The notes under the pieces: generated by a model | What the model saw: the letters and a program-made list of their open reading frames with translations, nothing else | What the model was told of the DNA's origin: nothing | Databases searched by the model: none | Source of the DNA: Rhodospirillales bacterium | GTDB taxonomy: Bacteria; Pseudomonadota; Alphaproteobacteria; Acetobacterales; Acetobacteraceae | Reading direction: 5' to 3' | NCBI GenBank assembly: GCA_031420655.1 | Contig: JANONC010000363.1 | Span: 1 to 52,936 of the forward strand | Length of the DNA: 52,936 nucleotides | Made by a program: the position numbers and the translations under genes | Shown: in pieces, positions 1,703-50,430 of the stretch | How positions within the stretch are numbered: position 1 is the first letter of the stretch | Layout of the letters: each line of letters starts with the position of its first letter

Positions 1703-4700
1703 ATGACGCATATTCGCGCCCTGTTTGGCCGCCGCCGGGTTAATGGCTTGCGGGATAAGCTATCCAAGTGCACCGCCGTATCGGGCCTCATGCATTTTGA
1801 GGCGCTCGAACCTCGTGTGCTGCTTTCAGCCGATCTGTTGCCAGTTCATGGATCATTGGACGTACCGGGTCAGCAGGACCATTACGCCTTCTCGCTCGAC
1901 ACCACCAAAGACCTCTATTTCGACAGCCGGACCAGCACGCCCCAGTTCAACTGGACGCTGAATGGACCCGGCGGCACGGTCGTTTCCAAGTCACCCTTCA
2001 CCCAGTCTGACTCCTACGGCATTGGCGGCCCGGCCGCGCTGCATGTGCCAGCAGGGGACTATACGCTGGATGTGCAGTCGCGGGATGGCACGACTGGGGC
2101 ATATGACTTCCAGCTGCTCGACCTTGCCAATGCCAAGCCGATCACTGCTAGCACTCCCATCGACGGCACCCTGAACCCGGCCAACCGCACGGACCTGTAT
2201 CGCTTCACCGCCACGGCGGGTGACACGGTATTTTTTGACGGCCACGCGCTAGACCAGCACTCGGTCGCATGGCGCGTGATCGGCCCGGACGACAACCTTA
2301 TTTTCGGCCCGAACAATGTGGGACAGGACACGGGACCCACCAAGCTCGATAAAACCGGCACCTATACCGTGATGATCGAGGGTGCGACCGATCAGACCGG
2401 GGCGGCCCCGTACAGCTTTACCGTCCTACCCGTGACCACCACGCACGCCACCTTGGCGCTCAATCAGACTGTGGCGGGTAGCCTTGCAACACCGGGGCAT
2501 AGCGACGCGTATAGTTTTGCCGTTACCCAGTTCACGCAGGTTGTGTTCGATAGCCTGAACAGCCGGGACGACGTGTCGTGGGCGCTGACCACCACGGGCG
2601 GTTTGCCAGTGGGCGGGGGATCGTTCGGTGGTTCCGACGGCAACGGCACACCGGCGTCCGATCTGCTCCGCCTTGCCCCGGGCGGCTACACGCTCACCGT
2701 CAGTGGGTCTGGCGCGGCGACGGGGGTGTATGGCTTCCGGCTTTTGGATACCGGCACGGCGCAGGTAGCCGCCGTCAACACGGCTATAACCGGCACGCTG
2801 GGCGATGCGGGTGCAGTGGCGCAGGGCATGCACATGTCTGGCGGCGCGCCGGTGGTGGACGCCTCCTCAGACCGCGCCACCAGCTTTGGCACCGCGCAGG
2901 TCGTGGGCACTGTGCCAGTCTCAATGGCACTTCAGCCGGACGCCTTTACGGTCGAGGCATGGGTCAACCGCGCCTCCACCGCATCCGGTAACCGGGATAT
3001 CGTGCGCCAGGGCTCGGGTGCCGCCGGCTATGCGCTGCTGGTCAGTGGGGCCGGGCAGCTCACATTCCAGGCGGGTGCCGCATCCGTATCCGCCGCAGCC
3101 GCGCTGCCGCCCGGCCAATGGACCCACGTGGCTGGCACGTTCGATGGTGCGACGCTGCACTTGTTCGTGGACGGCGTGGACGTGTCCGCTGCGCCGGCTG
3201 CGGGTGCGGTCGCGTATGACACCAACGGCGTGGTGCTGGGCGGCCGCGATCCGTTCGGCAACGCGGTCTGGAGCGGCGCGCTCAACGACGTACGGATCTG
3301 GAACACGGCGCTACCTGCCGGAACGATCGCCGCCAACCGCCTGCATGAGCTGGGGGCCGCACCCGGCCTGCTTGCCAACTGGCGGCTGAACGACGCCGCT
3401 GGCCTCACGCTCACTGATGCCAGTGGGCAGGGGCATGACGCGACGCTAGTCAACCTGCCCGGCACGGCCACCGCGCTGTATGCTATCCCGCTAACGGCCG
3501 GCCTGAGCTATACTCTGGAAAACCTGTCGTACGACCGCAACGACTCCGTTCGCGTTTTCAACCCGGCCGGGTTTCAAGTGGCATACAGCCAATACGAATT
3601 CATCGCGCCCACATTTACCGCAGAGGTGTCCGGGACCTACACGGTCGCGGTTGAGGGCAACCCCGGCAATACCCGGCCCGCCAATTTCAACGTCCGCTTG
3701 AACGAGGGCTCGACCGCGGTGCAGGCGCTCGCGGTGGGCCAGACGGCAAGCGGCACGATTGGGTTGCCGGGTCAGTCGGTCTCGCTCGGCTTCACGCTCG
3801 GGTCTGCATCGCAGCTAGTGCTTGACGTGCTGGATGCAGCGGCAGGGCTGCAATGGCGCCTCATTGGCCCGTCTGGCGCGGTTGTCCCAGCCAGCGACCT
3901 GACGCACGCGGACGGCTTTAATGCGCCGCAGAATCCGGTGCTGGCCTTGGCTGCCGGGCAATACCATTTGATCGTTAACGGCACCGGTACCACGACCGGT
4001 ACGTTCCATTTGCGCCTGCTGGACGCTGCTTCGGCAACGCCGTTTGCGCTGGGCACCACCCTGTCCTGGGCTGCGGACCAGCCGGGCGGTGCAACCCTCT
4101 ATACGTTCGCGGCGTCGGCCGGGGATCAAGTGTCGTTCCATCCCGGGTCGCCCGATGACAACATCGCCTGGCAGCTGCTGGACCCTACCGGACGCACGCT
4201 GTTCGGCCCGCATTCTGTGCGGGACGAGACGGGCGTTACACTAGGAGCGTCCGGAACCTATCTGCTGCTGATCGGAGGCTATCCGAACGGGTCGGCACCA
4301 TCCGCCAGCATTGGCACCAGCCTTGACAGCCACCAGGCTCCGGCGGCACCGGCTGGCACGCCACTCGCCCTAGGTGCCGTCGCGACCGCGACACCCGGGC
4401 CGGGTGCGACCGACCGGTACGTCGTGACCGTGGCAGCCGGGCAGCGCCTATATTTCGACAGCCTTACCAACAGCGACGGTGTAACCTGGTCGTTGGCAGG
4501 GCCGCGTGGCACGGAGGTATCGTCGCGCCGGTTCGACCAGACCGATGGCAAGGATCGGAACGATAACCCGGTTCTGGTTCTGCCGCTTGCCGGCCAGTAC
4601 GAGCTGGATGTGACGACCGGCGCGTCGTTTGGCGGACCGTATGCGTTCCGGCTGACGGATATCGACGCCGGCGCGACGCCGATCACGACCGACGGGGCCG

Positions 4701-25700: not shown

Positions 25701-28700
25701 AGCTGACGCCGTCGTTCACGACCGTGCCGGGCCAGGCCGTAACGGTACACCCGGTCGCCGCGGGCCTCGCGTCCATTGCCAGCGTCGTGCTGTACCGGGA
25801 CGGGGTGATCGTGCCGCTCGATGCAAACGGCATGGCAGTCATTACCCCCACCGTGCCCGGGCGCATCAATTTGCTAGCCGTGGCAACGGATGTGGACGGC
25901 ACCACCGGGCAGGCTACGGCGGTGCTGAAGACGCGCGACCCGGCGGATACCGGCGCTCCCGTCGTGGCATTCCTGCCGGATACGCAGGGCGCGTTCCTGA
26001 CCACGGCTGCTCCAATCGACGCGACGATTGCGGACAGCAACCTCGATAGCTGGACACTGGAGATCGCATACGGCGTTGGCACGACAACCGGGCCGTATCG
26101 CACGATCGCTAGCGGCACAGCACCGGTCAGTGGCGCGCTCACGACGCTCGATCCCGCCAGCCTGCTAGCCGGGTTCTATACGCTGCGGCTGACGGCAGTG
26201 AACATGACCGGCACCGTGGCCATGGCACTCACGGCGATCGAGGCCGATGCACAGTCGCTCGCCGGCACCTATGCCCGGCAGGTCACGGACCTGGTCACGA
26301 CGCTGGACGGCATTCCGTTCAATCTGGAGCGCGCCTATAGCAGCGTGGACAGCACGGGCGGGCTGTACGGCCCCGGCTGGCGCTGGACACCGCGCGACGT
26401 GGACATGCAGGTGAACGTACCCACGACGGGGCTGGAAGCATCGGGCGTGTATGCGCCGTTTGGCCAGGATACGCGCCTGTACCTCACCCGGCCGGATGGC
26501 GTGCGCACCGGCTTCACCTTCACGCCCACCACAGAGACGCTCGGGCCCGTCGTGCTGTTCCACCCGGCCTGGCAAGCGGATGACGCGGCGGGCGGCTGGA
26601 CGTTGAAGCCGGCCACAGACACGACTCTCATTCAGGCGGGCGGGCATTTCTACGACGAAGTGACCGGTCTGCCGTACAACCCCGGTGCCGCGGGCGGCAC
26701 GCAATATGTGCTAACCGGCCCGGACCAGACCGCCTACCGGATCGACCCGGCGCGTGGCGTGACCGAGATGGACACCCCAGCCGGACGCTTGCTGCTGAGC
26801 AGCACCGGTGTGACCGCGCCAGATGGCACGACGTTGCGCCTCGTGCTGGGCGCAAACGGTCAAGTGGCGCGCGCCACAAGTCCGGACGGCATGACCGTCA
26901 TCTATGATTACGACACGGCCGGGCGGATGATCGCCGCCCGCAACACCGCCACGGGTGCCGGAGAGCGCTATGCGTATGACGGTGCGGGCCGGCTGGTCGC
27001 CGCCGTGTCGCAAACGGGCGGGGGGTCGTCCGTCAGCTATGGCACCACCGCCACCGTCATCCCGATTGTCGCCGATCTGGGTGAGGCGGGGAGCTTTACC
27101 GGGCAAACAACGGCTGGCGTGCTGGGCGGCACTGGTCCTGACATCTACACATTCAGCGTCCGCCGGTCGGAAATCGCCTCCGCCCCGGCCGGCACCGTTC
27201 TTCTGCGCGTGGCGGTGACGTCGGCAGGCGGGACAGCGTCCCCCATCATCGCGGGCCTGGTTGCCAGCGGGGTCGTGACCGACGGTACGACGACGGTTGC
27301 GCTATTCGCCATCAGCTCGGCCGACCTGTTCCGCCTGTCGGTTGGCGGGGCGGCGGGGGCGTACACACTGGCGCTGTCGTTCGCGGGCGACGTGAACCAG
27401 GACGGCGTGGTGGATGGCACGGATGGCGCGCTGGCGCTGGCCGGTGCGGCCCTGGCGGATGTGAACGGCGATGGCCGGATGACGCCCGCCGACGTGCAAT
27501 TGATCGGAGCAAATTACGGCGTGACGGCCAACCGGCCCCCGGCTGCGGCCGCGGCACCGCCCACCGTCATGACGCATGTGGGCCTGCGCGTACTGATCGA
27601 CCTGACGCAATTCGCCATCGATCCGAATGGCGACCGTGAGACTTTTCGCATCACCGGCGTGCAGGGCGGCACGGCCGCAATACAGGCGGACGGCACGGAT
27701 TTGCTGTTTATGCCCACCGACGGCTACACCGGTCCGGGCAGCATAACCGTCGTGGCCGATGACGGGTTCGGCCAATCCGCCCCGATCAGCGCCGCAATCG
27801 GCATCAGCGCGGCGGCCTTGATGCGCTTCGACTTCGACCGGTCGCGTATCCTGTTCAGCGATGTTGGGGCCAGCGGCGTGCTGGCGGCCTATGCCGATTT
27901 CACGGACCAGACCCACGTGCTGGTACCGCTGGATTATGTGCACGCCCGGGTGGATGACCCCACCATAGCCACCCTGCGTCCGGACGGGCTGCTATTGGCC
28001 ACCGGCACCGGAGCCACGATCATCCGGGCTGACCGCGGCACGCTCGCCGCCGCCAGCGTCGTAGGCGTCGGCACGCCCACGGACGGTACCCAGGCCGTGG
28101 CCAGCCAGTACAACATCAACCCTTACCCCGGCAGCGTTACGCTTGAGCCCGGAGACGGCACGCGGGACATTATCACCCGGCTGGGAACGCTGAACGATAC
28201 GTTCGTGACGCCGGCGGACGGGGTGCAGTACGTGTCGATGAACAGCGCCGTCGCGACCGTCGACGCGCAAGGCTTCATCCACGCCATCGCCGACGGCAGC
28301 ACCGACATCAAAGTGTTGTGGACCTATGGCGAGGGGATCGTCCACGTGCAGGTGCGCGAAGCCGTGGTGGCCGCGACGGCCACGATTGGCACCGCGGGCG
28401 GCATTGCCGAAAATACGGATGGCGTTCGCGTGGGGTTCGGCGCCGGGCAGCTTGCGGCTAATGCGGCTGTGACCATTACGACCATCACGCAAGACCAGCT
28501 GCCGCTACCCGTGGTGGGCGGCACCACGGGTGCGTTCAGCTTTGCCGGTGCCTTCAACCTCCAGGTGGACGGCAGCGGTGCATCCGGGCCGATTCAGATG
28601 GCGGTGCCCACCAACGGCCTCGCCAATCCTGGCGACCAGGTGTTCTTTTTCCAACTCGTCTCGCTGCCGACCGGCCCCAACGGTGCGTTGCAGCAATGGT

Positions 28701-34700: not shown

Positions 34701-37700
34701 GCGGCGCGTTCTTAAAAGACGTCGTCGACAGCACGTTCAAGTTCGACTCCCTCACGCATGACCGGGTGTATGTGCCAACCGGCAGCGAAAACCTGAACTT
34801 CAACGTCTACATGCCGCTGGCGCTCACGCCCAACCTCAAGATCGTCGTCACGGCCGCGATCGACGATGACGGTACCGTCACGTCAAAGGCGCTCCAGGAC
34901 CTCGCCCGCGACACCAACGCGCCAGACGCGTTGGCCGGCACGGTCATCAAGCAGACATTCGATATTCCTGGATCGTTCTTCCAAGAGTTCAACAAATCCG
35001 TTCACCTGGCCGGGTTCGGTGGGCACCAGGTGCTGTTCACGATCACAGCGTTGAACGCCAATGGCTCAATCGCCGCGCCGAATGCCGTCCTCAACGTGCC
35101 CAACCCGGCCACGATCCTGGGCGAAGGCTTCAGCTCGCTCTTCCTGTTGCAGGACGTGAGCTTTGCCGCCCAGCCCGATGCCAACGAATATGCCACCGCG
35201 ACGACCAAGCAACTCGGCGTCGTGACCGCGACGGGCACGCCCACGGCGGATCTCACGCTCGACGCCGTCACGCGCGTGGCGGCTGAGGCACGCGACAACT
35301 GGGTCACGAGCGGCCTCGTGCCGGACGCGGCGGCCAGGCTCGCCTCCGTGCAGGTCGATGTGGGGCTGCTGACCAACGGACAGATCGGCGGTTACAGCAA
35401 CGGCACTATCACCATCGATGCGTCGGGCTCCGGCGTGGGCTGGTACACCGGTGACGGCAGCGCCTACGCGGCCGGGCCCAACAACACGTTCCTGGCCATC
35501 ACCGGCGGCCCGGCCGCGCAGCACTTCGACCTGCTGACGGTGCTGGAGCACGAATACGGCCACGCCCTCGGCCTCGATGACTTGCCGGACGGCGCGGTGC
35601 CAGGTTCGTTGCTGGCTGTCTCGTTGCACGAGGGCGTGCGGATCCTGCCGACGGCCCGCGACCTGCAGACGGCACCCGCGGCCCCGGTGGCACCCGTCGT
35701 GACCCGTGCTAGCCTGGGCCTTAGCAACCATAACGCAGTCATCACGTCCGGTGTGGCGCTGGACACCCCGGCGCCAATCTATGGCCCGCTCGGCAATGGC
35801 GGCTTCACTATCACGGACCCGGCCGCCGCCGGCTATGCCTGGAACACCACCGGCACCGTTGGCTTCACGGCGGGTCACGCGACACTCACTGAGAACCGGA
35901 CGGTGCTGTCCACCCTCGGCCAGACTTTCCTGCTGGGTGGCACGCAGACGACATTGTCGTTTACCATACAGGGACAGCTGTTCCAGGATGCAGGCCGCCC
36001 GTCCGACTCGTTCGAGGTATCGCTGGACGGCCCGGGTGGCACGCCGGTCATGGGTGCGGCGGGCCTGACCCGTACCGACGATCTGCTGGACATCCAGGCA
36101 GACGGGACTGTGTTTTTGGCGCAGGGCGTGACCGTCAGCGGCCTGCGGGCCGATGGCAAGATCGACCTGTCGGCCGGGCCGCACACGGTGACGATCGAGA
36201 CCAGCACGCTGTCTCGCAATGCGTCGCTTACGCTCGACATCGCGCTCGTGACCTTTGGCACCCACCCGGCTGCGGTGACGGTCGCCAACGTCGGCGGCAC
36301 CAGCATTAGCGGGCCCATTGCGGCCAACGTGACGGCACAGGCCGTGTCCGGCACCCCTGTCAAGATCGACGTGCTGTCGGCCGATGGCGGCACGGGTCTG
36401 TCGCTTACCGCCGTGGGCGCGCCGTCGCACGGCACGGCGTCCATCCAGGACGGGCAGGTGCTGTACACAGCCGCGGCCGGCTACACCGGCGCAGACCAGT
36501 TCGTCTATCGCATCACCGACACTGCGGGGCTTACGGCAACCGGCACTGTGGCTCTCACGGTACGGCAATTGGTCGTACCGCCATCGACGGTGCCGGAAAC
36601 GGCAACGGTGGCGGAAAACGGCTCGGTTCTGATCGACGTGCTGGCGCAAGATAGCGGGACGGGGTTGGTAATCACCGCGCTGTCACCCGCGTTGCATGGT
36701 GCCGTGGCGCTGGCGGATGGCAAGGTCTTGTACACTCCGGCCACGGGCTATTCGGGCGCGGACGCGTTCACCTACACCATCACCGGCGCTGAGGGTGCCA
36801 CGGCGCAGGGCACTGTCACACTCAGCGTTGTGGCCAGCGCGCCGGCGCCGGTCGCCCGGCCCGCGACCGCTACGGTGGCCTCCGGTGCCACGATCGTGCT
36901 GGACGTTTTGGCAGCCGATACCGGCGTGGGTATCGCGCTGACCGCCGTCAGCACCCCCGCGCACGGTACGGCCAGCATCGTCGCGGGCAAGATCAGCTAC
37001 ACCGCCGACACCGCCTATGCGGGAACGGACCAGTTCACCTACACGATTACAGATCAGCTCGGTCAGACAGCCAGCGCCAGCGTCGGCCTGACCTTAATTG
37101 CGGGCGCGGTAATGCCGGTCGCCAAGCCGGCGAGCGGCACGGTTGCTGCGGGCGGCACCATTGTCATCGACGTGCTGGCATTAGATACCGGCACCGGCAT
37201 CACACTCACTGACGTCGGCACGCCGTCGCACGGCACAGCTAGCATCGTGGGTGGTAAGATCAGTTACACCGCCGGGGCAAGCTTCGCCGGGGCGGACCTG
37301 TTCGGCTACACGATCACCGATACGCTTGGCCAGACGGCGACCTCGGTCGTGGGCCTGTCGGTCGTGGCGGGTCCTGTACTGCCGGTTGCCAACCCTGCGA
37401 GTGGCACGGTCGCGTCTGGCGCTACGGTGGTAATCGACGTGCTGGCGCTTGATACAGGTACTGGCATCACACTTACTGACGTCGGCACGCCGTCGCACGG
37501 CACAGCCAGCATCTTGGGTGGTAAGGTCAGCTACACCGCCGGGGCAAGCTTCGCCGGGGCGGACCAGTTCGGCTACACGATCACCGATACGCTTGGCCAA
37601 ACGGCGACCTCGGTCGTGGGCCTGTCGGTCGTGGCGGGTCCTGTCCTGCCGGTTGCCAAGCCGGCGAGCGGCACGGTCGCGTCTGGCGCTACGGTGGTAA

Positions 37701-41513: not shown

Positions 41514-41789
41514 ATGAGCGATGACCCTGCCGCCGCGCAGCAGAAGCTGCGGTTTGACACGACCGGTATCAAAAGCAGCTACTGCAACGTCTGCAACGCG
41601 ACCAGCACCCGCGAAGAGGTTGTGCTGAATTTCGGGCTTAATAAGACGTGGGACGTGGCCGGTGCCGACCTGCAAGTGCAGTTGGAACACCGCATCATTT
41701 TAAGTCCATTTGCCGCCAAACGCCTGCAGCAACTGCTGACACAACTGATGACGGAGCATGAGGCGCGGTACGGACAACTAAACCAGTAA
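41514..41789 (+). CDS. DUF3467-like small protein (91 aa)
   Basis: Internal ATG of ORF 41397..41789, with a strong SD. The sequence MSDDPAAAQQKLRFDTTGIKSSYCNVCNATSTREEVVLNFGLN...HRIILSPFAAKRLQQLLTQLMTEHEARYG resembles the DUF3467 family pattern (Y.N......s..E.vL.Fg, then a C-terminal helix). The assignment is from memory. Confidence 0.75.
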   Translation: MSDDPAAAQQKLRFDTTGIKSSYCNVCNATSTREEVVLNFGLNKTWDVAGADLQVQLEHRIILSPFAAKRLQQLLTQLMTEHEARYGQLNQ

Positions 41790-41802: not shown

Positions 41803-43638
41803 ATGGATAACACGAGGCTGGAAACCGGCATCAAAACCGCAGATCTGTGGGCGGAGTTTGCGGTTGCTGATGGGATGGACGCGCTGTGCCGGTCCTGGTT
41901 ATCGCTTTATTGCCGGAACCTCACGCACCTGTCCCGGGCGATGCTCGTTGTTTCCCGCCCCGGCGGACCGTTCCAGCCGCTGGCCGTGTGGCCCTCGTCA
42001 CTGACGGACCTGACCGGGTTACAGGGTGTAGTAGAACGCTGCATCCGCACTGGCGAGCCGGAAGTGGAACCGCAGGAGACCGGCGCGGGCACGCACGTGG
42101 CGTACCCATTCCTGGCAGACGGTCAGGTCGTGGCCGGCGCTGTCGTGCTGGATTTGGGCCCGGGCGCGGCCACCGGCCTGGCGCAGCTCTTGCGCGACCT
42201 GCACTGGGGCATGGGCTGGCTGGAAGCGCAGTCCGTCCGTGACCGTATGGCCCGCGAGCACCTACGCACCGCGAACCTATCCGCCGCTTTGGATCTAGTC
42301 GCGCTGGCCAACGAGCATGACCGCGCGGATGGCATGGCGATCGCGATTGCCAACGAACTGGCAGCCCGGCTCGGCGCGTCCCGCGTGGCGATCGGGCTGA
42401 GTGGGCCCAAGGGTGCTCGGCTACTCGCGCTGTCGCACACGGCCTGGTTCAAGCGCAACACTGCCCTGGCCCTTAGCCTGTGTTCGGCGATGGACGAGGC
42501 CATCGACCAGCGCGCCCCGGTCCGGCTACCGCCCGCCGCCGGGGAGCCGGTCCGCATTCAAGTGGCGCATGAGGCATTGCGAGGGTCGCTTTCGGGCGAT
42601 GGCGCGATCCTAACCGTGCCGATGCTGACGGAGCATGGGCCGGTGGGGGCCATCACCGTGCTGCATCCCGGCACACTGACCGTGGCGCAAGCGCGGCTGG
42701 TGGAGGCGGTTGCAGCCCTGCTCGGCCCCGGGGTGCACGCCAAGCAACGGGCGCGCCGCTGGCTATCCGGACGGTTGGTGGACGGAGCCGCGGGTGCCGC
42801 CGCCGCCCTCGCTGGCCCGCGGCATTTGGCGTGGAAATTCGTTGGTATTTCGGCGCTGGTGTCCGTCACGGCGTCGCTGATCGTACCCATGCCGTTCCGG
42901 GTTTCGGCCAAAGCGGTGCTGGAAGGGGAGATACAGCGCGTCGTGGCGGCCCCGTTCGAGGGCTTTATTGCCACCGCCCCGGCCCATGCGGGTGACGTGG
43001 TGGCGGAAGGCACCGTTCTCGCCACGTTGGACGACAATGACCTTCGACTAGACGCCGTAAAGTGGCAATCCGAGCATGACCGGCTGACGCTCAAGCTACG
43101 GGAGGCGTTAGCCAAGCATGACCCGGCCAGCGCCGGGCAGCTGGACGCGCAGTTGCGCCAGACGCAGGCGCAGGCCCGGCTGACGGCGGCCAAGCTCGCG
43201 CGGTCGGTCATTACCGCGCCGATGGCGGGTGTGGTCGTGTCGGGCGATCTATCGCACTCGATTGGCGCGCCGGTCGAAACGGGTAAGGTGCTGTTTGAGG
43301 TCGCACCACTCGACCGCTACCGCGTCGTGGTGCGGGTGGATGAACGCGACCTGCGGTTCGTGCAGCCCGGGCAGGGCGGCACGATGCTGCTGTATGGCCT
43401 GACCAGCGCGGCGCTGCCGTTCGTGGTGCAGCGCGTCACCCCGGTCGCGCAGGTCGATGGCGGGCGCAATACCTTTCGGATCGAAGGCGCATTGGCGGAC
43501 GGCGCGGCGCTCGATAGCCTGCGGCCCGGTATGGAGGGGATCGGTAAGATTGAAATCGGCGAGCGGTCCGTGGCCGCCGTGTGGACGCGCAGCCTGGTGG
43601 ACTGGGTGCGCAACACCGCCTGGGCCTGGACCCCCTGA
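41803..43638 (+). CDS. GAF-GAF-TM-HlyD family periplasmic adaptor (membrane fusion protein)
   Basis: 611-aa ORF starting 13 nt after the previous stop. There are two GAF-like segments (about aa 10-150 and 165-325) and one hydrophobic helix (WKFVGISALVSVTASLIVPMPF). The C-terminal HlyD pattern reads VAAPFEGFIATAPAHAGDVVAEGTVLATLDD...coiled coil...ITAPMAGVVVS...GKVLFEVAPLDRYRVVVRVDERDL. Confidence 0.85.
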   Translation: MDNTRLETGIKTADLWAEFAVADGMDALCRSWLSLYCRNLTHLSRAMLVVSRPGGPFQPLAVWPSSLTDLTGLQGVVERCIRTGEPEVEPQETGAGTHVAYPFLADGQVVAGAVVLDLGPGAATGLAQLLRDLHWGMGWLEAQSVRDRMAREHLRTANLSAALDLVALANEHDRADGMAIAIANELAARLGASRVAIGLSGPKGARLLALSHTAWFKRNTALALSLCSAMDEAIDQRAPVRLPPAAGEPVRIQVAHEALRGSLSGDGAILTVPMLTEHGPVGAITVLHPGTLTVAQARLVEAVAALLGPGVHAKQRARRWLSGRLVDGAAGAAAALAGPRHLAWKFVGISALVSVTASLIVPMPFRVSAKAVLEGEIQRVVAAPFEGFIATAPAHAGDVVAEGTVLATLDDNDLRLDAVKWQSEHDRLTLKLREALAKHDPASAGQLDAQLRQTQAQARLTAAKLARSVITAPMAGVVVSGDLSHSIGAPVETGKVLFEVAPLDRYRVVVRVDERDLRFVQPGQGGTMLLYGLTSAALPFVVQRVTPVAQVDGGRNTFRIEGALADGAALDSLRPGMEGIGKIEIGERSVAAVWTRSLVDWVRNTAWAWTP

Positions 43639-43640
43639 TC

Positions 43641-45791
43641 GTGACGGAAACGTTCTTCGCCCAGAACTGGTACCGGGTCGCAGCGCTGCGGCCGCGCTTG
43701 GCTGCGCATGTTGTGGTCGAGCGGCACCGCTATGGCGGGCTACCCTGGTACGTGTTGCTGGACCGGCTATCGGGCCGGGTGCACCGCATGTCGCCTGCCT
43801 CGTTCCTGTTCGCCGTGCGCCTCGATGGCGTCCGTACGGTGGACGAGGTGTGGCAACAAACGGCGGCCGAACTGGACGATGACGCGCCGGGGCAACCGGC
43901 CGTGCTGCAGATACTCATGCAGTTACACGCAGCCGATTTGCTGTCCGGTGATATGCCGCCCGATGCGGCGGAACTGCTGTCGCGGCGCGACCGGATGGGC
44001 CGGCAGCTGCTGACGCGCAACCTGCGCTCGCCCATGTCGATACAGGTGCCGCTGTTTGACCCCGACCGGTTTCTGAGCGGGACGCTGCGTGTGGTGCAGC
44101 CGCTGCTGGGCCCGGTGGGCGGCGTGCTGTGGCTGCTGCTGGTCGTGGCTGGGGCGGTGACGGCGGGACAGCATTGGGACGAGCTGACGGGCAATCTGCT
44201 GGACCGGCTGCTGGGCACTCAGGGCCTGCTGGCTATGGCGCTCTGCTACCCGGTCCTGAAAATATTGCATGAACTCGGCCATGGCTGGATGGCCAAGCGC
44301 TTCGGCTGCGAAGTGCGGGAGATGGGCGTCATGCTGCTCGTGATGATCCCGGTGCCGTATGTGGACGCCAGCGCGTCGGCGGCGCTACGCAATAAATGGC
44401 AGCGGGCCGCGGTGGCGTTCGCAGGCATCGCGGTCGAACTCGGCCTGGCCGCCGCCGCAACGCTGGTGTGGGCCGCGGCCGAGCCGGGCTTGCTGCGCGC
44501 GGTGGCATTCAACGTCATGGTCATCGGCAGTCTCTCGACCCTCGTGGTCAACGGCAATCCGTTGCTGCGCTTTGATGGCTATTACGTGCTGTCAGACGTG
44601 CTGGAGGTTCCAAACCTTGCCCAGCGCGGCAGCCAGTTCTGGGGCTATGTGCTGAACCGCTTTGTCCTAGGTGTGCCGAACCTGCGGCCTTCTTCCGCAA
44701 CCATGCGGGAGCGGTTCATATTTGCGCTCTATACCCCGGCGGCCCTGGCCTATCGCCTATCGGTTTCCGCCGGGATCGCACTCTATGTCGCCACACATTA
44801 CTTTATTTTGGGCGTGGCGCTGGCGGTGGTCATGCTAGCGACGACTGTCGCGTGGCCCGTGCTGCGGACAATAGGGCGGATCGTGGCGTCGCCGCTTTAT
44901 GCACGCTGCCGTGCCCGCGCGACTGGGCTGACGTTTGCCGGGATCGCCGCGGTGGTGCTGCCGCTAGCGCTGGTGCCGGCCCCCCTGCACAGTACCGGGG
45001 ACGGCGTCGTGTGGCTGCCGCGGGAGGCGTTCGTGCGCGCTGGGGCGGACGGGTTCGTGCAGTCCGTCACCGCAGCAGGCGCGCAAGTGCCGGCGGGTGC
45101 CCTGCTGGTCGCGTTGGCCTATCCCTTGGCGGACGCGCGGCTGGAGGTCGAGCGGGCGCGGGTGGACGAGCTGCGCGCGAAGTACGAGACGGAGTGGGTG
45201 ACGGATCGGATCGCCGCTGCAGTTACAGGGTTCGAGCTGTCGCAGCAGGAGGCCGTCTTGAACCGCGAGCAGCAGCGGCAAGCGCGCATGACGGTCACGG
45301 CTGGCACGAGCGGCGCATTCAGTCCCATCCGGCCCACCGGCGATCTGGAAGGGCGATTCGTTAAAGAGGGAGAGGTGCTGGGCTACGTCGTCCCACCCGG
45401 CGGCGAGCTGGTCCGGGTACTCGTGCCGCAGGTGGATATCGCACTGATGCAGGAGCGGCTCGTGCGGGTCAGCATCTTGTTGCCCGATAGCCGGACCACC
45501 GTCGCCTCCAGCGTTCTGCGCGCCGTGCCCGGCGGCGATAGCGACCTGCCGAGCGAGGCGCTGGCGGCCAGCAATGGCGGCTCCATCGTGACCGACCCGC
45601 GGGATACAAAGACGATGCGCGCCTTTGAGCGGCATTTCCAGTTCGACTTGTCCCTCCCCGCGACAGCCGCGGTGCGCGCCGCCGGACTTGGGTCGAAGGT
45701 GTTGGTCCGCTTCGATTATGCGTGGGAGCCGGTGGCAAGCATGGTGTATCGCCGAGTGCGCCAGGGATTGCTTGGCCGTTTTAACACGTGA
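43641..45791 (+). CDS. PqqD-like / S2P (peptidase M50-like) / HlyD-like fusion membrane protein
   Basis: ORF 43581..45791. GTG 43641 lies 2 nt after the upstream stop, and TETFFAQNWYRVAALRPRL looks like the family N-terminus (ATG 43581 is the alternative). The PqqD-like segment is YVLLDRLSGRVHRMSPASFLFAVRLDGVRTVDEVWQQTAAEL. HELGH is at 44268-44282. The second S2P motif is NGNPLLRFDGYYVLSD (about 44549-44590). There are several hydrophobic helices. The C-terminus carries a lipoyl/coiled-coil/barrel HlyD-like part (ARLEVERARVDELRAKYE...RFVKEGEVLGYVVP). Confidence 0.85.
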   Translation: MTETFFAQNWYRVAALRPRLAAHVVVERHRYGGLPWYVLLDRLSGRVHRMSPASFLFAVRLDGVRTVDEVWQQTAAELDDDAPGQPAVLQILMQLHAADLLSGDMPPDAAELLSRRDRMGRQLLTRNLRSPMSIQVPLFDPDRFLSGTLRVVQPLLGPVGGVLWLLLVVAGAVTAGQHWDELTGNLLDRLLGTQGLLAMALCYPVLKILHELGHGWMAKRFGCEVREMGVMLLVMIPVPYVDASASAALRNKWQRAAVAFAGIAVELGLAAAATLVWAAAEPGLLRAVAFNVMVIGSLSTLVVNGNPLLRFDGYYVLSDVLEVPNLAQRGSQFWGYVLNRFVLGVPNLRPSSATMRERFIFALYTPAALAYRLSVSAGIALYVATHYFILGVALAVVMLATTVAWPVLRTIGRIVASPLYARCRARATGLTFAGIAAVVLPLALVPAPLHSTGDGVVWLPREAFVRAGADGFVQSVTAAGAQVPAGALLVALAYPLADARLEVERARVDELRAKYETEWVTDRIAAAVTGFELSQQEAVLNREQQRQARMTVTAGTSGAFSPIRPTGDLEGRFVKEGEVLGYVVPPGGELVRVLVPQVDIALMQERLVRVSILLPDSRTTVASSVLRAVPGGDSDLPSEALAASNGGSIVTDPRDTKTMRAFERHFQFDLSLPATAAVRAAGLGSKVLVRFDYAWEPVASMVYRRVRQGLLGRFNT

Positions 45792-45809: not shown

Positions 45810-47792
45810 CTACTCTGTACCGGTGAAGCCCATTCCGCGGTCGGTTTCCTCGTCCTGCTGCATTTGCTGGCGGCGCTGCTGGGCGTTCATGCGGCTTGCG
45901 GTGCGCTGCGCATGATGGCGCAACAGGGCCAGGCCGCCGGGCAGCTTTCCGGCGGAAGCAGCAAGGCGGGGTGCGAAGCGGTGGAACAGTTCGTCATCCC
46001 GGGCCACGATGCTTTCGCACGATCCCGGGTCGCCCTGGCGTCCGGCGCGGCCGAACAGCTGGCGGTCGATGCGGCCGCTATCGTGATAACCGGTCAGGAT
46101 GACATGCAGCCCGCCCGCGGCCGCCACGCCGGGGCCGAGCGTAATATCCGTCCCGCGGCCAGCCATGTTGGTCGCGACCGTGATCCGGCCTGCCTGACCG
46201 GCGGCGGCCACGATAGTCGCCTCATTCACGTCTTGCCGGGCGTTCAGTACGACATGCGGTAGCCCACGCTCTGCCAGCACTGCGGAGAGCGACTCCGATG
46301 CCTCGACCGACTGGGTACCGGCTAGCACGGGTTGACCTGCGCACGAGACCTGCGCCACCCGCGCTGCGACCGCCTGCCATTTCGCCGCAGCATCGGGCAG
46401 CAACATCCCTCCCAGATTGCGGCGCTGCACCGGGCGATGGGTGGGCATGTGGACGGTACGCAGCCCATAGACGCCCTGCAACTCCCCCGCGACCTCCCGC
46501 GCCGTGCCAGACATGCCGCTCAGATGCAGATAGCGGTTGAAAAAGCGCTGGTAGGTGATGCGGGCCAGGGTCACACGCCGCCCAGTGAGGGTCACGCCCT
46601 CTTTCGCCTCCACCATCTGGTGCAATCCTTCTTCCCAGCTGCGGTCCGGCATGACACGCCCGGTATATTCATCGACGATCTGAACCGACCCATCGGCGAC
46701 GATGTAGTGCCGGTCGCGGGCGAACAGATGCAGCGCGGTCAGCGCCTGGGCGATCAGCGTTTCCCGCGCAGGGCGGATGCGGAACAGGCCGAGCATATTC
46801 TGGCCGAGCAGCGCTACCTTCTCCTGCCCCCGGGTGGTCAACCGCACGACGTCCGCCGCGGCGTCTATCAGGAAGTCGTCGCCCAGCGCCAGCCGCCGCC
46901 CGATCTCGAGCGCCCGTCCGGCAATCTCCTCCGCGCCTTGGTCGGGCCGGTCGGCGGAGATGATGAGCGGCGTGCGAGCCTCGTCGATCAGCACGCTGTC
47001 GGCCTCATCGACGATCGCCGCATGCAGGCCGCGCAGGACCAGCCCGCCTGCGCCGGACGTACCGACAAGCGACGCAACGGCCTGCCGCGCCTGGCCCTTG
47101 CCGCCGGTCGTCGCGATTCGGTCCTTCAGGTAGTCGAACACCAGTTCCTTGTTGGAAACATAGACGATATCGGCGGCGTAAGCCTGGTGGCGCAACGCCG
47201 GCTCATCTCCTTCGACGACAACGCCCACCGTCAATCCCAGCGCCTCACAGACAGGACGCAACCGCTCCGCATCGCGGCTGGCGAGGTAGTCGTTTACCGT
47301 CACGACGTGGACGGGCTTGCCGGCCAGGGCGAGGTAGATGGCGGGCAGCAGCGCGGTGATGGTCTTGCCCTCACCGGTCGCCATTTCGACAATGCGGCGG
47401 CTGGTGAGGGCACGTCCGCCGAGCAGCTGGACCGGGTAGTAGCGCAGGCCGAGGTGGCGCTCGACGGCGGTTGCCACCAGGCCGAACACCTGCGTGCGCC
47501 GGGCGCCGGGGTCTTTCAGCAGCGCCGTGCGCAGCGCCGCCGCACTGGCCAGCAGCGCGGGTCCGCTGTGGCCGCTGACAGACGCAGCCTCCCGCGCAAC
47601 GTCAAGGGCAAATTCGGCTGCGCCTGTCAGCCGTCCGGTAAGCGCCGCCCGCCACTGGCCGACCATGGTCGCTACGCGGCGGTCGAACGCATTGCCCGGT
47701 CGTATAAAGCGCTCGGCATAGGGGGCCACGGCATAGCGACGCATGATATTTTCTTGCCACGCCGCAGGACGAAGGTCTAGCAGATACGTCAT
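45810..47792 (-). CDS. truncated SecA-like ATPase paralog (DEAD motor plus preprotein cross-linking region only)
   Basis: YYPVQLLGGRALTSRRIVEMATGEGKTITA (Walker A codons at 47361-47384), HVVTVNDYLASRD, IVDEADSVLIDEARTPLIIS, VATNMAGRGTDI, GRAGRQGDPGS. The protein ends about 60 aa after the last motif. An alternative start is ATG 47744 (MRRYAVAPYAER). Confidence 0.85.
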   Translation of the reverse strand: MTYLLDLRPAAWQENIMRRYAVAPYAERFIRPGNAFDRRVATMVGQWRAALTGRLTGAAEFALDVAREAASVSGHSGPALLASAAALRTALLKDPGARRTQVFGLVATAVERHLGLRYYPVQLLGGRALTSRRIVEMATGEGKTITALLPAIYLALAGKPVHVVTVNDYLASRDAERLRPVCEALGLTVGVVVEGDEPALRHQAYAADIVYVSNKELVFDYLKDRIATTGGKGQARQAVASLVGTSGAGGLVLRGLHAAIVDEADSVLIDEARTPLIISADRPDQGAEEIAGRALEIGRRLALGDDFLIDAAADVVRLTTRGQEKVALLGQNMLGLFRIRPARETLIAQALTALHLFARDRHYIVADGSVQIVDEYTGRVMPDRSWEEGLHQMVEAKEGVTLTGRRVTLARITYQRFFNRYLHLSGMSGTAREVAGELQGVYGLRTVHMPTHRPVQRRNLGGMLLPDAAAKWQAVAARVAQVSCAGQPVLAGTQSVEASESLSAVLAERGLPHVVLNARQDVNEATIVAAAGQAGRITVATNMAGRGTDITLGPGVAAAGGLHVILTGYHDSGRIDRQLFGRAGRQGDPGSCESIVARDDELFHRFAPRLAASAGKLPGGLALLRHHAQRTASRMNAQQRRQQMQQDEETDRGMGFTGTE

Positions 47793-48588
47793 GATCTACC
47801 GCAGTCTTGGTATAATTGTACTGCTCGCTGGGCCTGCTCATGCGGGGGAGTACGCCTGCTTGATCGAGCCGAAGCAGGTGCTGAAGCTCGCTGCACCCGT
47901 GCAGGGCGTAGTGGCCGCCGTAGAGGTTGATCGCGGGGACCGGGTACGGAAGGGCCAGGTGCTGGCGCGGCTGGATTCCGATGTGGAGGAGGCTAACGCG
48001 CTGATCGCCCAAGTGCGTGCGGCCAATGACACCGCGATCCGGTCCGGGCGCGCCCGGCTCGATTTCCTGCGCCGCAAACAGTCGCGCAACGATCAGCTCC
48101 GAACGACCGACGCGGTTAGTTTTGCCCAAGCGGACGAAGCAGCGTCTGACGCGCGCGTGGCCGAAGCGCAGTTGCGGGAGGCGGAGCTGAACGTAGCGCA
48201 GGCGCGTCTGGAGGCGAAGCGGTCCGAGGGATTACTGCAGCAGCGCCGGGTGGTAAGCCCGATCGATGGCGTGGTCACGGAGCGCTCGCTGGGGCCGGGC
48301 GAGTTTCGCAACGACCAAGCGACCATTCTGACGATTGCCGAGATTAATCCACTACGGGTTGAAACCTTTTTGCCGATCGCGGTGTACGGCCAGGTCAAGG
48401 TTGGGGACAAAGCGGTGGTGGTGCCCGAAGCGCCAGTGGGCGGCAGCTACGCCGCGACGGTCACGGTCGTGAATGCCGTGTTCGACGCGGCCAGCGGCAC
48501 GATCGGGGTGCGGCTGGAGCTACCAAACCCCGACCTGCTGTTGCCAGCGGGTATACATTGTCGGGTCCGTTTTTCGGCGGTGCCCTGA
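47791..48588 (+). CDS. small periplasmic adaptor (HlyD/RND-MFP family) with signal peptide
   Basis: MIYRSLGIIVLLAGPAHA/GEY signal. Then KLAAPVQGVVAAVEVDRGDRVRKGQVLARLD, a coiled coil, VVSPIDGVVTERSLGPGE and PLRVETFLP. The longest ORF starts at 47743. Confidence 0.8.
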   Translation: MIYRSLGIIVLLAGPAHAGEYACLIEPKQVLKLAAPVQGVVAAVEVDRGDRVRKGQVLARLDSDVEEANALIAQVRAANDTAIRSGRARLDFLRRKQSRNDQLRTTDAVSFAQADEAASDARVAEAQLREAELNVAQARLEAKRSEGLLQQRRVVSPIDGVVTERSLGPGEFRNDQATILTIAEINPLRVETFLPIAVYGQVKVGDKAVVVPEAPVGGSYAATVTVVNAVFDAASGTIGVRLELPNPDLLLPAGIHCRVRFSAVP

Positions 48589-49112: not shown

Positions 49113-49268
49113 GGCCAATCGTAGTTCGGAGCACAACAAGAACACTGGGTCATGGCCACCTTCCGTCGTACCTGCCCAGCCTTCGTCGGCCGACCGCGCT
49201 TCTTGGGTGGCTCCTACTTGGATTACGGCTCCGGCGCGGCCGCGGCTTTCCTGGCCGGCCACCTGTCG

Positions 49269-50430
49269 ATGTCGAAACCCCTGCCGCAAGGGGTCACCTA
49301 CCTCGGCACTATGCGTTGTCGCACCCGCAAGCTCGTAGACGGCAAGCGGCTGGACAAGACCTTCCCAACCGCGCGGCTGGCGCGCGAGTGGCTGGAGTCT
49401 GCTTCCGTCGCGGTCCGGGCCGGAAAGTTCGTCGACTCCAGGCCGCTGGACAGGATGACCGTCGGCCCGATGGTGGATCGCTTCGCCGAGGAGACGATGC
49501 AGGAGGGCGGCCCGCGGCGCGGCTACAAGCAGGACATAGGACATGTTCTTGCTCTGAAGACCGACGAGATTGCGCTCCTGCCGCGATCGAAGCTGACCCC
49601 TTTCGCTGTCCGCAATTTCCGCGTGAGCCAGCTTGAGGCGGGTTTCGCGAAGGCGACCGTGGTCAAACGCATGAACTTGCTTGCCTGAGTGTTGAAGCAC
49701 GCCACGAGCGAGTAGGGCCTGCCGCTGGTCAAAAACGTGGCGTCTGGGAAGCTCGTCAGCCGTCCAAATGGGGGCCGACCAGAAGCGCAAATGGCGTCTC
49801 CGCGTTCCGGGCGTGGCAGCCCAGCGGGTGGCGGAAAGCCGGGGCGAGGGGTGCATTCCCCACCGAAGAAAAGGTCCTCTACGAACTCGATGGAGAAGTC
49901 CGATAACATATTGAACCTGCACATGGTGCGGTTCGCGATGGCGTAGAGCACCCGTCTCGGGGAGCAGTTGGGGATGCGCTGGCGGCATGTCGATTTCGAG
50001 GCTCGTTCCCTCACTCTCGTCGGTAGGTTTGGACGATGGCACGAAGAACGAGGACCACCGCGAGGAACTGGGGCTCGAGGTCCGGGCGCTTGTGCCCCGT
50101 TCGATCGAGACCCTTCGGGAGATTAAACCGGAGAACGTGGATCCCAGCGCCCACGTTTCCCGGCGGGCGGATATAACGCCTTCAAAACCAGGATCGGACG
50201 GCCACTTCGGACGGCTGCCGGGAGGATGACAGGCACCATGAAGGAGCTTCACTACTAGGACGACCTCCGCTGCCATGACCTGAGGCACGAGGCGACGAGT
50301 CGGCTCGCAAAGGTGTTCACGGACAGCAAGATGCTCATGAGCGTGATCGGCCACATGGACCACAAGTCCATGCTTCGATATTACCAGCCAGATCCGAACA
50401 AGCTGGCCATGATCGCTGAGGAACACGGGC
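49269..50430 (+). pseudogene. tyrosine recombinase / phage-type integrase, multiply disrupted
   Basis: N-terminus: MSKPLPQGVTYLG...DRFAEETM...TVVKRMNLLA. Then in-frame TGA 49686-49688, TAG 49713-49715 and TAG 49944-49946. RLGEQLGMRWRHVDFEARSLTLVG is followed by a frame change near 50030 (TKNEDHREELG...VPRSIETLREIK) and TAG 50256-50258. The catalytic end is LRCHDLRHEATSRL...VIGHMDHKSMLRYY. Confidence 0.8.

Follow-up and report, generated by a model that had tools for sequence, protein, structure and literature searches.

A LEPR-XLL leader on a giant adhesin-like protein and its linkage to a PqqD–M50–adaptor gene cassette

We analysed a 52,936-nucleotide stretch of DNA from a Rhodospirillales bacterium (contig JANONC010000363.1, hereafter the window), in which a giant gene encoding 13,261 amino acids (aa) begins with a LEPR-XLL motif and is followed by a gene cassette that includes a fusion of a PqqD-like domain, an M50 intramembrane metalloprotease and a periplasmic adaptor. 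On balance, residues 1–45 of the giant protein appear to be a dedicated export leader, neither Sec nor Tat, that marks this adhesin-like cargo for a machine encoded just downstream. That such leaders are the targeting signal of the cassette is very probable, and LEPR-XLL is rather likely to be the address label of an undescribed, TolC-dependent secretion class for giant proteins, one that spans the envelope, uses no ATP-binding cassette (ABC) transporter and is built on the M50–adaptor protein. Apart from classical type I secretion, little is known of how proteins of 5,000–35,000 residues are exported through two membranes.

The leader stands at the head of an open reading frame (ORF) on the forward strand (1703–41488). 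Translation of 1703–1850 gives exactly MTHIRALFGRRRVNGLRDKLSKCTAVSGLMHFEALEPRVLLSADLLPVH, and a peptide from the leader region reads RFEFETLEPRVLLSADLL. No start earlier than the ATG at 1703 is available: between it and the in-frame TGA at 1643 lie 19 codons, of which none is ATG, GTG or TTG. A basic N-region without a hydrophobic core (residues 1–31, 1703–1795, forward strand; seven Lys plus Arg, two Asp plus Glu) precedes the core LEPR-XLL motif FEALEPRVLLSADL (residues 32–45, 1796–1837, forward strand), and the same seven-to-two count holds for the 35 residues upstream of the motif. The NCBIfam model NF012209 (LEPR-XLL) matches residues 31–49 with 35.7 bits (cut-off 17; E = 3.9e-9), so that the match begins at residue 31 of 13,261, at the far N-terminal end of a protein that is very long and repetitive, and in all six reading frames of the window the pattern [LFYIVM]EPRx[LMVI][LMFI] has no second occurrence. 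Although the leader contains an RRR run, residues 1–60 have no match to the Tat consensus [ST]RRx[FLIVM], and the leader holds neither the core of ∼10–15 uncharged hydrophobic residues that follows the basic region of Sec signals nor any segment resembling a transmembrane (TM) helix. Hydrophobicity over 10 residues peaks (Kyte–Doolittle 1.95) at VLLSADLLPV, i.e. in the motif itself, Asp included. Translation, family model, hydropathy and consensus scan thus bear out an earlier note on this DNA, which had described a basic stretch and LEPRVLL and had seen no Sec or Tat signal.

Pfam finds Laminin_G_3, CARDB, He_PIG, Big_9, Cadherin_5, RHS, DUF4214, PKD and Cohesin domains in the cargo, which, judged by its Ig, cadherin, CARDB, LamG and cohesin/dockerin domains, is adhesin-like. 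Neither RTX repeats (HemolysinCabind) nor other C-terminal features of type I substrates were found anywhere in the 13,261 aa, so the cargo lacks the hallmarks of such substrates. A metzincin-like HEYGHALGLDD lies inside the giant protein (35549–35581), as do several dockerin-like Asp-rich loops (27389–27427) and a C-terminal cohesin match in Pfam (40802–40960); going by these motifs, the cargo may bring its own protease and modules for cohesin–dockerin self-association.

A leader profile search returned 140 N-terminal fragments whose record names include Alpha-, Beta-, Gamma- and Deltaproteobacteria, Pirellulaceae and Verrucomicrobiota. Across 123 leaders the conserved block reads [LF]-x-[FLV]-E-x-L-E-P-R-[VL]-L-L-S-A-D, and the motif is sharply bounded: the information content of the profile falls off steeply directly past the Asp, and cargo sequence beyond LLSAD shows no conservation between cargos. 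In the same 123 leaders the Glu of EPR lies at a median of residue 36 (range 5–65), the net charge ahead of the motif has a median of +5, and hydrophobic runs are short, the longest in each leader having a median length of three residues. Searched against 1.84 billion representative proteins, the profile matched 2,089 clusters (E ≤ 0.001), the match starting at or before residue 63 in 150 of 150 among the matches listed; together with the 13,261-aa ORF this agrees with the earlier statement that LEPR-XLL heads large repetitive proteins. A LEPRxLLSAD DNA pattern matched metagenome sequence in frame 121 times, and about 117 of these matches are N-terminal leaders (99 within 100 codons past an in-frame stop and another 18 in a basic-leader context), with three to four internal. 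Because the profile and metagenome matches are almost all N-terminal, the motif constitutes a highly specific N-terminal signature, far beyond chance. One fragment found by the LEPR profile also has a weak match to PF07595 (Planc_extracel). In the open-access literature searched, LEPR-XLL is mentioned descriptively only, and no report of a function, receptor or processing enzyme was found.

The evidence that carries our reading is the linkage between this leader and the cassette. At every locus where both a PqqD–M50–adaptor gene and the N-terminus of a neighbouring giant could be read, the giant begins with the leader (17 of 17), and no readable adjacent giant without a leader was found among the loci inspected. 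These 17 comprise nine loci from the window and plasmids, seven from a genome scan and one that was leader-seeded. For the plasmids, tblastn gave 13 full-length matches, and 50-kb annotated regions were read for eight alphaproteobacterial plasmids; in the window and these eight plasmids the motif occurs exactly once per locus, 37–69 codons past the stop ahead of the giant ORF, which spans 4,054–13,280 aa. Two of the plasmid giants are already annotated as ‘LEPR-XLL domain-containing protein’, and in one plasmid record the annotated start leaves out the leader. The gene order giant, DUF3467, GAF-adaptor, M50 fusion, SecA-like ATPase recurs in Pseudooceanicola batsensis (giant of 12,228 aa) and in an Acetobacteraceae metagenome-assembled genome (MAG; 14,929 aa).

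When the M50 alignment was run against 185,579 species, each represented by a single genome, at least 553 of them proved to encode an M50–adaptor relative. The neighbourhoods of the best 80 loci (full length, 36–61% identity), which are spread over Alpha-, Beta-, Gamma- and Deltaproteobacteria, Myxococcota, Nitrospirota, Methylomirabilia, Rokubacteria and Acidobacteriota, show a stable composition: the GAF-adaptor lies immediately upstream of the M50 gene in 77, the SecA-like gene adjoins it in 76 (and in 12 of 13 plasmids), and the small adaptor, DUF3467 and SapC are found in 48, 32 and 15 loci respectively, DUF3467 also in most plasmid loci. Loci without the GAF-adaptor or the SecA-like gene are mostly cut by contig ends. 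A long same-strand ORF leaves the locus edge just upstream in 31 of the 53 evaluable loci, and in seven loci (L036, L057, L082, L093, L097, L098, L101), one of them a Nitrospira MAG, the N-terminus of the cargo can be read beside the cassette and has the leader. Some other cassettes are preceded by long GC-rich ORFs (L054, L060 and others), which look spurious or unrelated and were counted neither as cargo nor as counter-examples. TolC-family genes are annotated within the cluster in Thalassospira, Methylosinus and E. coli, and tblastn matches add L014 and L032.

The linkage also holds in the opposite direction, from leader to cassette. At one leader-seeded locus (L014) a M50 gene (38% identical), TolC, a SecA-like gene and a small adaptor lie directly upstream of the leader-bearing giant; other leader-seeded loci have a small adaptor (L017), SapC (L015) or TolC (L013). 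Cassette genes are absent at two leader-seeded loci, a remnant disrupted by an insertion sequence (IS) and a locus with a Planc_extracel leader; insertion sequences have broken up both L013 and L018, leaving remnants. Among 44 metagenome leader sites with at least 3 kb of upstream DNA, cassette genes occur in 16 within the few kb covered (M50 in nine, SecA-like in eight, small adaptor in eight, GAF-adaptor in six, SapC in four, DUF3467 in three and TolC in two), an enormous enrichment given that M50–adaptor genes are at most single-copy and present in a minority of genomes. The co-occurrence of LEPR-XLL proteins with this M50/PqqD subfamily, which the earlier note had put forward as a check, is therefore strongly positive both forward (17/17) and in reverse (16/44). 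Around leader-bearing protein loci, flanks of 10 kb seldom reach past the giant gene (L103, L104, L105, P0266).

Two leader-bearing genes stand in tandem on one contig at two loci (L138 and L142), which fits a signal acting in trans, and one cassette may serve several cargos, as with the two giants of Chlorobium. In Chlorobium chlorochromatii, symbiosis proteins with LEPR-XLL reach 36,806 and 20,647 aa, among the largest bacterial proteins; the LEPRxLL giants Cag_663 and Cag_665 have Cag_662 (SapC) and Cag_664 (TolC) as neighbours, and a horizontally acquired ‘secA’ (Cag_1676) is co-expressed with them (bioRxiv 10.64898/2026.03.19.712371). Both the neighbours and the co-expressed secA agree with the cassette composition found here. 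A SapC-family gene likewise recurs beside LEPR-XLL giants or within the cassette in our set (L008, 35557–36354; L011; L015).

At the heart of the proposed machine is the M50 fusion (43641–45791, forward strand, 716 aa), identified by family scans and an AlphaFold2 (AF2) model. Its true start is probably the GTG at 43641 and not the GTG at 43581 of the ORF list (736 aa), because the former lies 3 nucleotides past the stop of the upstream adaptor and yields the 716 aa seen in homologues, more than 4,500 of which have about this length. Pfam M50 (PF02163) scores 35.4 bits on the fusion (gathering threshold 27.2) and PqqD 21.3 bits, slightly under its cut-off of 23.4. The top PDB sequence match of the family profile is the PqqD protein 3G2B (E = 2.7e-4, chain residues 15–94), and the AF2 model (confidence score, pLDDT, 83) shows beta-beta-beta-alpha-alpha-alpha over residues 24–97 (43710–43931, forward strand; pLDDT about 80–90), the topology of a recognition element (RRE) of RiPPs, peptides that are made on the ribosome and modified after translation. 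These results substantiate the claim that the neighbouring protein carries a PqqD-like domain together with HELGH. The N-terminal domain is followed in the model by a multi-helix membrane core and then by a periplasmic adaptor part with an alpha-hairpin (44976–45791, forward strand; helices at residues 495–548), for which Foldseek finds MexA, MacA, AcrA and EmrA as best matches (E down to 4e-10); with the whole M50 model, the best 50 Foldseek matches are adaptors only.

The active site is strongly conserved. Among 119 homologues, H210, E211 and H214 of the zinc-binding and catalytic motif HELGH (44268–44282, forward strand) and the second M50 motif N-x-N-P-L-L-x-x-D312-G-Y (NGNPLLRFDGYY, 44550–44585, forward strand), whose Asp is the third zinc ligand, are either invariant or conserved to 98% or more, and conservation of the N-terminal domain is on a par with that of the catalytic core, about 33 of the first 105 residues being at least 90% conserved; the H48/R49 region, at strand beta3 of the RRE-like fold, is invariant. 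The closest curated relatives are RiPP leader peptidases, with daptide_HExxH (NF041824) at 145.6 bits against a cut-off of 300 and YydH/LiaK (NF058609) at 21.1 bits against 225; these scores under the curated cut-offs mean that the fusion is a member of neither family. RiPP maturation by M50 enzymes is established, EpeP being one example, and leader proteases are stimulated by RREs (PMC10885120).

The remaining genes of the cassette surround the M50 fusion. Immediately after the giant come a small accessory DUF3467 protein (41514–41789, forward strand, 91 aa; PF11950, 63.5 bits) and the GAF-adaptor (41803–43638, forward strand, 611 aa; NCBIfam and Pfam), which joins a GAF domain and one TM segment to a periplasmic adaptor of the membrane fusion protein (MFP)/HlyD type. 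Downstream of the M50 fusion lie the SecA-like ATPase (45810–47792, reverse strand, 660 aa) and a small periplasmic adaptor of the RND_mfp type (47743–48588, forward strand; TIGR01730, 129.9 bits), which likely starts at M17 (47791) and then has a signal peptide. The SecA-like protein is truncated: Pfam and NCBIfam recognize the first nucleotide-binding domain (NBD1), the preprotein cross-linking domain (PPXD) and NBD2 (SecA_DEAD, SecA_PP_bind and P-loop_SecA only), with no scaffold, wing or C-tail. It retains an intact Walker A motif, MATGEGKT, and a DEAD-type box, DEADSVLIDEARTPLIIS, and shares about 44% identity with canonical SecA across residues 101–607 (motor and preprotein-binding domains); its best curated SecA score is 535 bits against a cut-off of 814, too low for membership in the curated model. 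The window cassette contains no modification (tailoring) enzymes, and no ABC transporter was seen in the cassette of the window or of the related loci inspected. The idea that DUF3467 is a SecB-like chaperone found no support and was dropped, with an hhalign probability of 0.3% against E. coli SecB and no PDB sequence match; its single-sequence AF2 model has a pLDDT of 59.

From this inventory we propose a machine in which the GAF-MFP and PqqD–M50–MFP proteins would be anchored in the inner membrane and would work with the small soluble adaptor, the truncated SecA-like ATPase and DUF3467, the adaptors presumably docking on a TolC-family channel, whose gene belongs to the cluster in some genomes and would lie elsewhere in the present genome. 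In the cytoplasm, the RRE/PqqD-like domain of the M50 fusion would capture the basic N-region and FExLEPRxLLSAD; the SecA-like motor, where present, would then thread the unfolded chain from N- to C-terminus into the adaptor/TolC duct; and the M50 site, facing the cytoplasmic side of the membrane, would cut the leader off at or just after LLSAD. The cut is proposed at the end of LLSAD because conservation stops there. The leader-binding domain, the direction of transport, the cleavage and its site are what we infer, and the judgement is close to evenly balanced that the RRE-like domain is the receptor, for which it is the best candidate, and that the M50 site, the best candidate for the peptidase, cuts near the end of the conserved block. 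The remark in the earlier note that site-2 proteases cut within or near membrane-proximal helices does not apply literally here, because the leader has no membrane helix.

Several observations weigh against this reading. Site-2 proteases normally cut transmembrane helices, and such a helix is missing from the leader. The SecA-like protein has a preprotein-binding domain of its own and is thus an alternative leader receptor, and no inner-membrane channel is evident in the cassette. The Planc_extracel leader stands at a locus with no cassette nearby, albeit a single one, and 28 of the 44 metagenome leader sites show no cassette gene in the DNA covered. These 28 may have their cassette on the far side of the giant gene, be served by one in trans or have none; we regard such sites as uninformative, not negative, because the commonest gene order puts the cassette past a giant gene of 12–45 kb. 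LEPR-type leaders are also named in Pirellulaceae and Verrucomicrobiota records, and neither phylum is among the top 80 genome loci, so there may be many LEPR-XLL proteins without the M50/PqqD subfamily in those phyla. The last group of adverse points comes from a sister cassette, consisting of cargo, TolC, small adaptor, adaptor and M50–adaptor without a SecA-like gene or DUF3467, which is carried by E. coli IncF plasmids (24 of 5,426 complete genomes) and one Azospirillum plasmid. The E. coli M50–adaptor aligns only from profile position 87, its first ∼90 residues differing from the PqqD domain, and neither it nor the Azospirillum protein has a Pfam PqqD match; the cargo leaders depart from the canonical form (LESRQLFDGA in E. 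coli, LEPRFMFDAAG in Azospirillum), and no energy source is evident in this class.

The same sister cassettes help to separate the essential from the dispensable parts. Their cargos start MTTIKNRRLRPRAHRFALESRQLFDGAA (E. coli) and MKSRFTRVKGSAKKTG...YALEPRFMFDAAG (Azospirillum), followed by a DUF4347-type domain. Because these cassettes keep LE(P/S)R leaders, a recognizable PqqD domain is not essential for this leader class, and the M50–adaptor core, which persists with variant leaders where both PqqD and SecA-like parts are missing, emerges as the invariant partner of the LE(P/S)R-type leader. At the level of classes, and in two examples only, LLSAD leaders go with the PqqD-type N-terminal domain and [LM]FD[GA]A leaders with the other N-terminal domain. 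In Thalassospira marina a canonical LEPR-XLL cargo is accompanied by DUF3467, two adaptors, the M50 fusion and TolC, with no SecA-like gene in the cluster or among the matches listed on that plasmid.

These variants bear directly on a different assignment of roles, in which the SecA-like protein reads the leader through its preprotein cross-linking domain, the PqqD–M50–adaptor serves structure, gating or quality control, and the leader is perhaps not removed. Accessory SecA2 systems come with special N-terminal signals, and the SecA-like protein here keeps NBD1, PPXD and NBD2, its Walker A and DEAD motifs are intact, and its gene adjoins the M50 gene almost throughout (76 of 80 genome loci, 12 of 13 plasmids). 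We nevertheless consider this assignment unlikely: the canonical cargo of T. marina and the LE(P/S)R leaders of the E. coli and Azospirillum cassettes occur where no SecA-like gene was found, and a purely structural role would not account for the strong conservation of the active site and PqqD domain in the M50 fusion. A little less likely again is that the leader is a tether, holding the adhesin at the surface through the adaptor/TolC duct until an M50 cut, possibly under GAF control, releases it. LapA/LapG/LapD offers a precedent in the N-terminal retention module of LapA-type adhesins, and the adhesin-like cargo, the likeness to TolC-dependent adaptors and the cytoplasmic GAF sensor domain fused to the partner adaptor (77 of 80 loci) would all suit such a role. 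Since sequence past LLSAD is not conserved across cargos, however, there is no folded retention domain beyond the motif, and no LapG- or LapD-like genes were noticed in the loci, in which no search was aimed at such genes; in the present data, release by the M50 cut looks the same as ordinary leader removal.

We give hardly any credence to the remaining explanations, that the leader is an unusual Sec or Tat signal served by the general machinery or that the motif is a chance one with unrelated neighbours. A basic N-region is typical of Sec and Tat signals too, and the window leader has its RRR run, but a median hydrophobic run of three residues and the lack of a Tat consensus speak against the general machinery, and a nearly invariant, almost exclusively N-terminal motif speaks against both. 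As the leader–cassette linkage spans phyla, both are effectively refuted. Export of the giant cargo by the M50–adaptor machine, with the leader as its signal, remains the reading that we favour.

The cassette resembles type I secretion, accessory Sec and RiPP export, and fails the defining tests of each. Like the type I systems of LapA, SiiE and MpIBP, it pairs a giant repetitive adhesin-like cargo with HlyD/MFP-type adaptors and, in some clusters, TolC; in contrast, it lacks an ABC transporter, RTX repeats and a C-terminal signal, the leader being N-terminal, and where type I secretion has one adaptor there are here three adaptor-type proteins, accompanied by an M50 protease and a SecA-like motor. 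Accessory Sec (SecA2) likewise sets a SecA paralogue beside a very large surface protein with an unusual N-terminal signal, whereas no SecY2 or Asp genes were seen in our loci, the SecA-like protein is without scaffold, wing and C-tail, SecA2 scores are far under their cut-offs, and the carriers are diderm, with TolC-type adaptors involved. Giant proteins of Omnitrophota and Actinobacteriota have built-in SecA DEAD and preprotein-binding domains, without scaffold or wing, and have been proposed to export themselves (bioRxiv 10.1101/2023.11.21.568195). The SecA part of the Omnitrophota giants is in cis, whereas the cassette encodes it as a 660-aa protein of its own, in a conserved operon together with the M50–adaptor and GAF-adaptor.

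A parallel in logic is the leader-guided export of RiPPs and bacteriocins, which shares a short N-terminal motif and a PqqD/RRE-like domain fused to a protease and an export part, and to whose order of recognizing the leader, cutting and exporting we liken the cassette, where binding and cleavage are conjectural. The RiPP systems act on a short precursor peptide with tailoring enzymes, in contrast to the 13,261-aa cargo with neither modification enzymes nor an ABC transporter, and their M50 enzymes are without the TolC-type adaptor fusion of the window protein. With the site-2 proteases RseP and SpoIVFB (PF02163) the fusion shares HExxH and NPxxxxDG and a Pfam M50 score above gathering; those enzymes cut transmembrane segments of regulators after a site-1 cut, whereas the presumed substrate here has no TM helix, and the window protein differs from them by its fused RRE-like domain and periplasmic adaptor. 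With respect to the known families NF012209 and PF07595, the window N-terminus is a member of the former, and the coupling to an M50–adaptor cassette is the addition made here. No description of the M50–adaptor/SecA-like cassette was found in the open-access literature searched, and one may exist elsewhere.

If our reading is correct, the RiPP-style logic of binding, cutting and exporting would operate on proteins of 4,000–15,000 residues, extending RRE and leader logic beyond small natural products, and an M50–adaptor fusion and a SecA-like motor would join the repertoire of TolC-dependent machines. The tie between tag and cassette makes an annotation curiosity testable, with a leader that can be fused to a reporter, a protease with a clear catalytic mutant and a motor ATPase. 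Cultivable carriers include Pseudooceanicola batsensis HTCC2597, Pseudosulfitobacter sp. DSM 107133, Thalassospira marina CSC3H3 and Mesorhizobium ciceri R30, with E. coli plasmids for the sister class. Among the latter, plasmid NZ_CP081687.1 (L022, record positions 44829–64580) encodes a 4,459-aa Ig-like cargo with the leader ...HRFALESRQLFDGAA and DUF4347, and its sister cassette could be used as a tractable experimental model.

Annotation also stands to gain, in mis-called cargo starts and in the inconsistent names given to the SecA-like protein. The Alisedimentitalea cargo WP_343211605 begins past its leader in the public record (L008, 35224–35330, reverse strand), and the leader VSFPFLPGRKFLSSKRRRF...EQLEPRLLLAAD is found in frame upstream of the annotated start; the Pseudosulfitobacter giant is annotated from a TTG just 15 residues ahead of the motif (L006, 1731). 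On the Azospirillum ramasamyi plasmid NZ_CP029835.1 (L020, L226, L227), a cargo ORF of 4,853 codons is absent from the annotated features; it spans the record origin and lies upstream of TolC, the small adaptor, the adaptor and the PqqD-less M50–adaptor. Public names for the SecA-like protein range over ‘DEAD/DEAH box helicase’, ‘translocase’, ‘preprotein translocase subunit SecA’, ‘hypothetical protein’ and, in Methylosinus, ‘prepilin peptidase’.

One leader subfamily has a long, conserved and very basic region before the motif (…WRKQGLLKKALQ..RRR.MR.E.LEPRLLLSADLTY…; L122, L140, L149, L154, L157, L185, L206, L218), and no cassette genes lie within the DNA covered around these eight sites. 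In the window, a fragment of an IS5-family transposase is found upstream of the locus (51–608), and an integrase-like ORF, so read from its sequence only, downstream (∼49152–49688). Given these transposase- and integrase-like flanks, the plasmid locations and the IS-cut leaders at L013 and L018, the cassette looks horizontally mobile.

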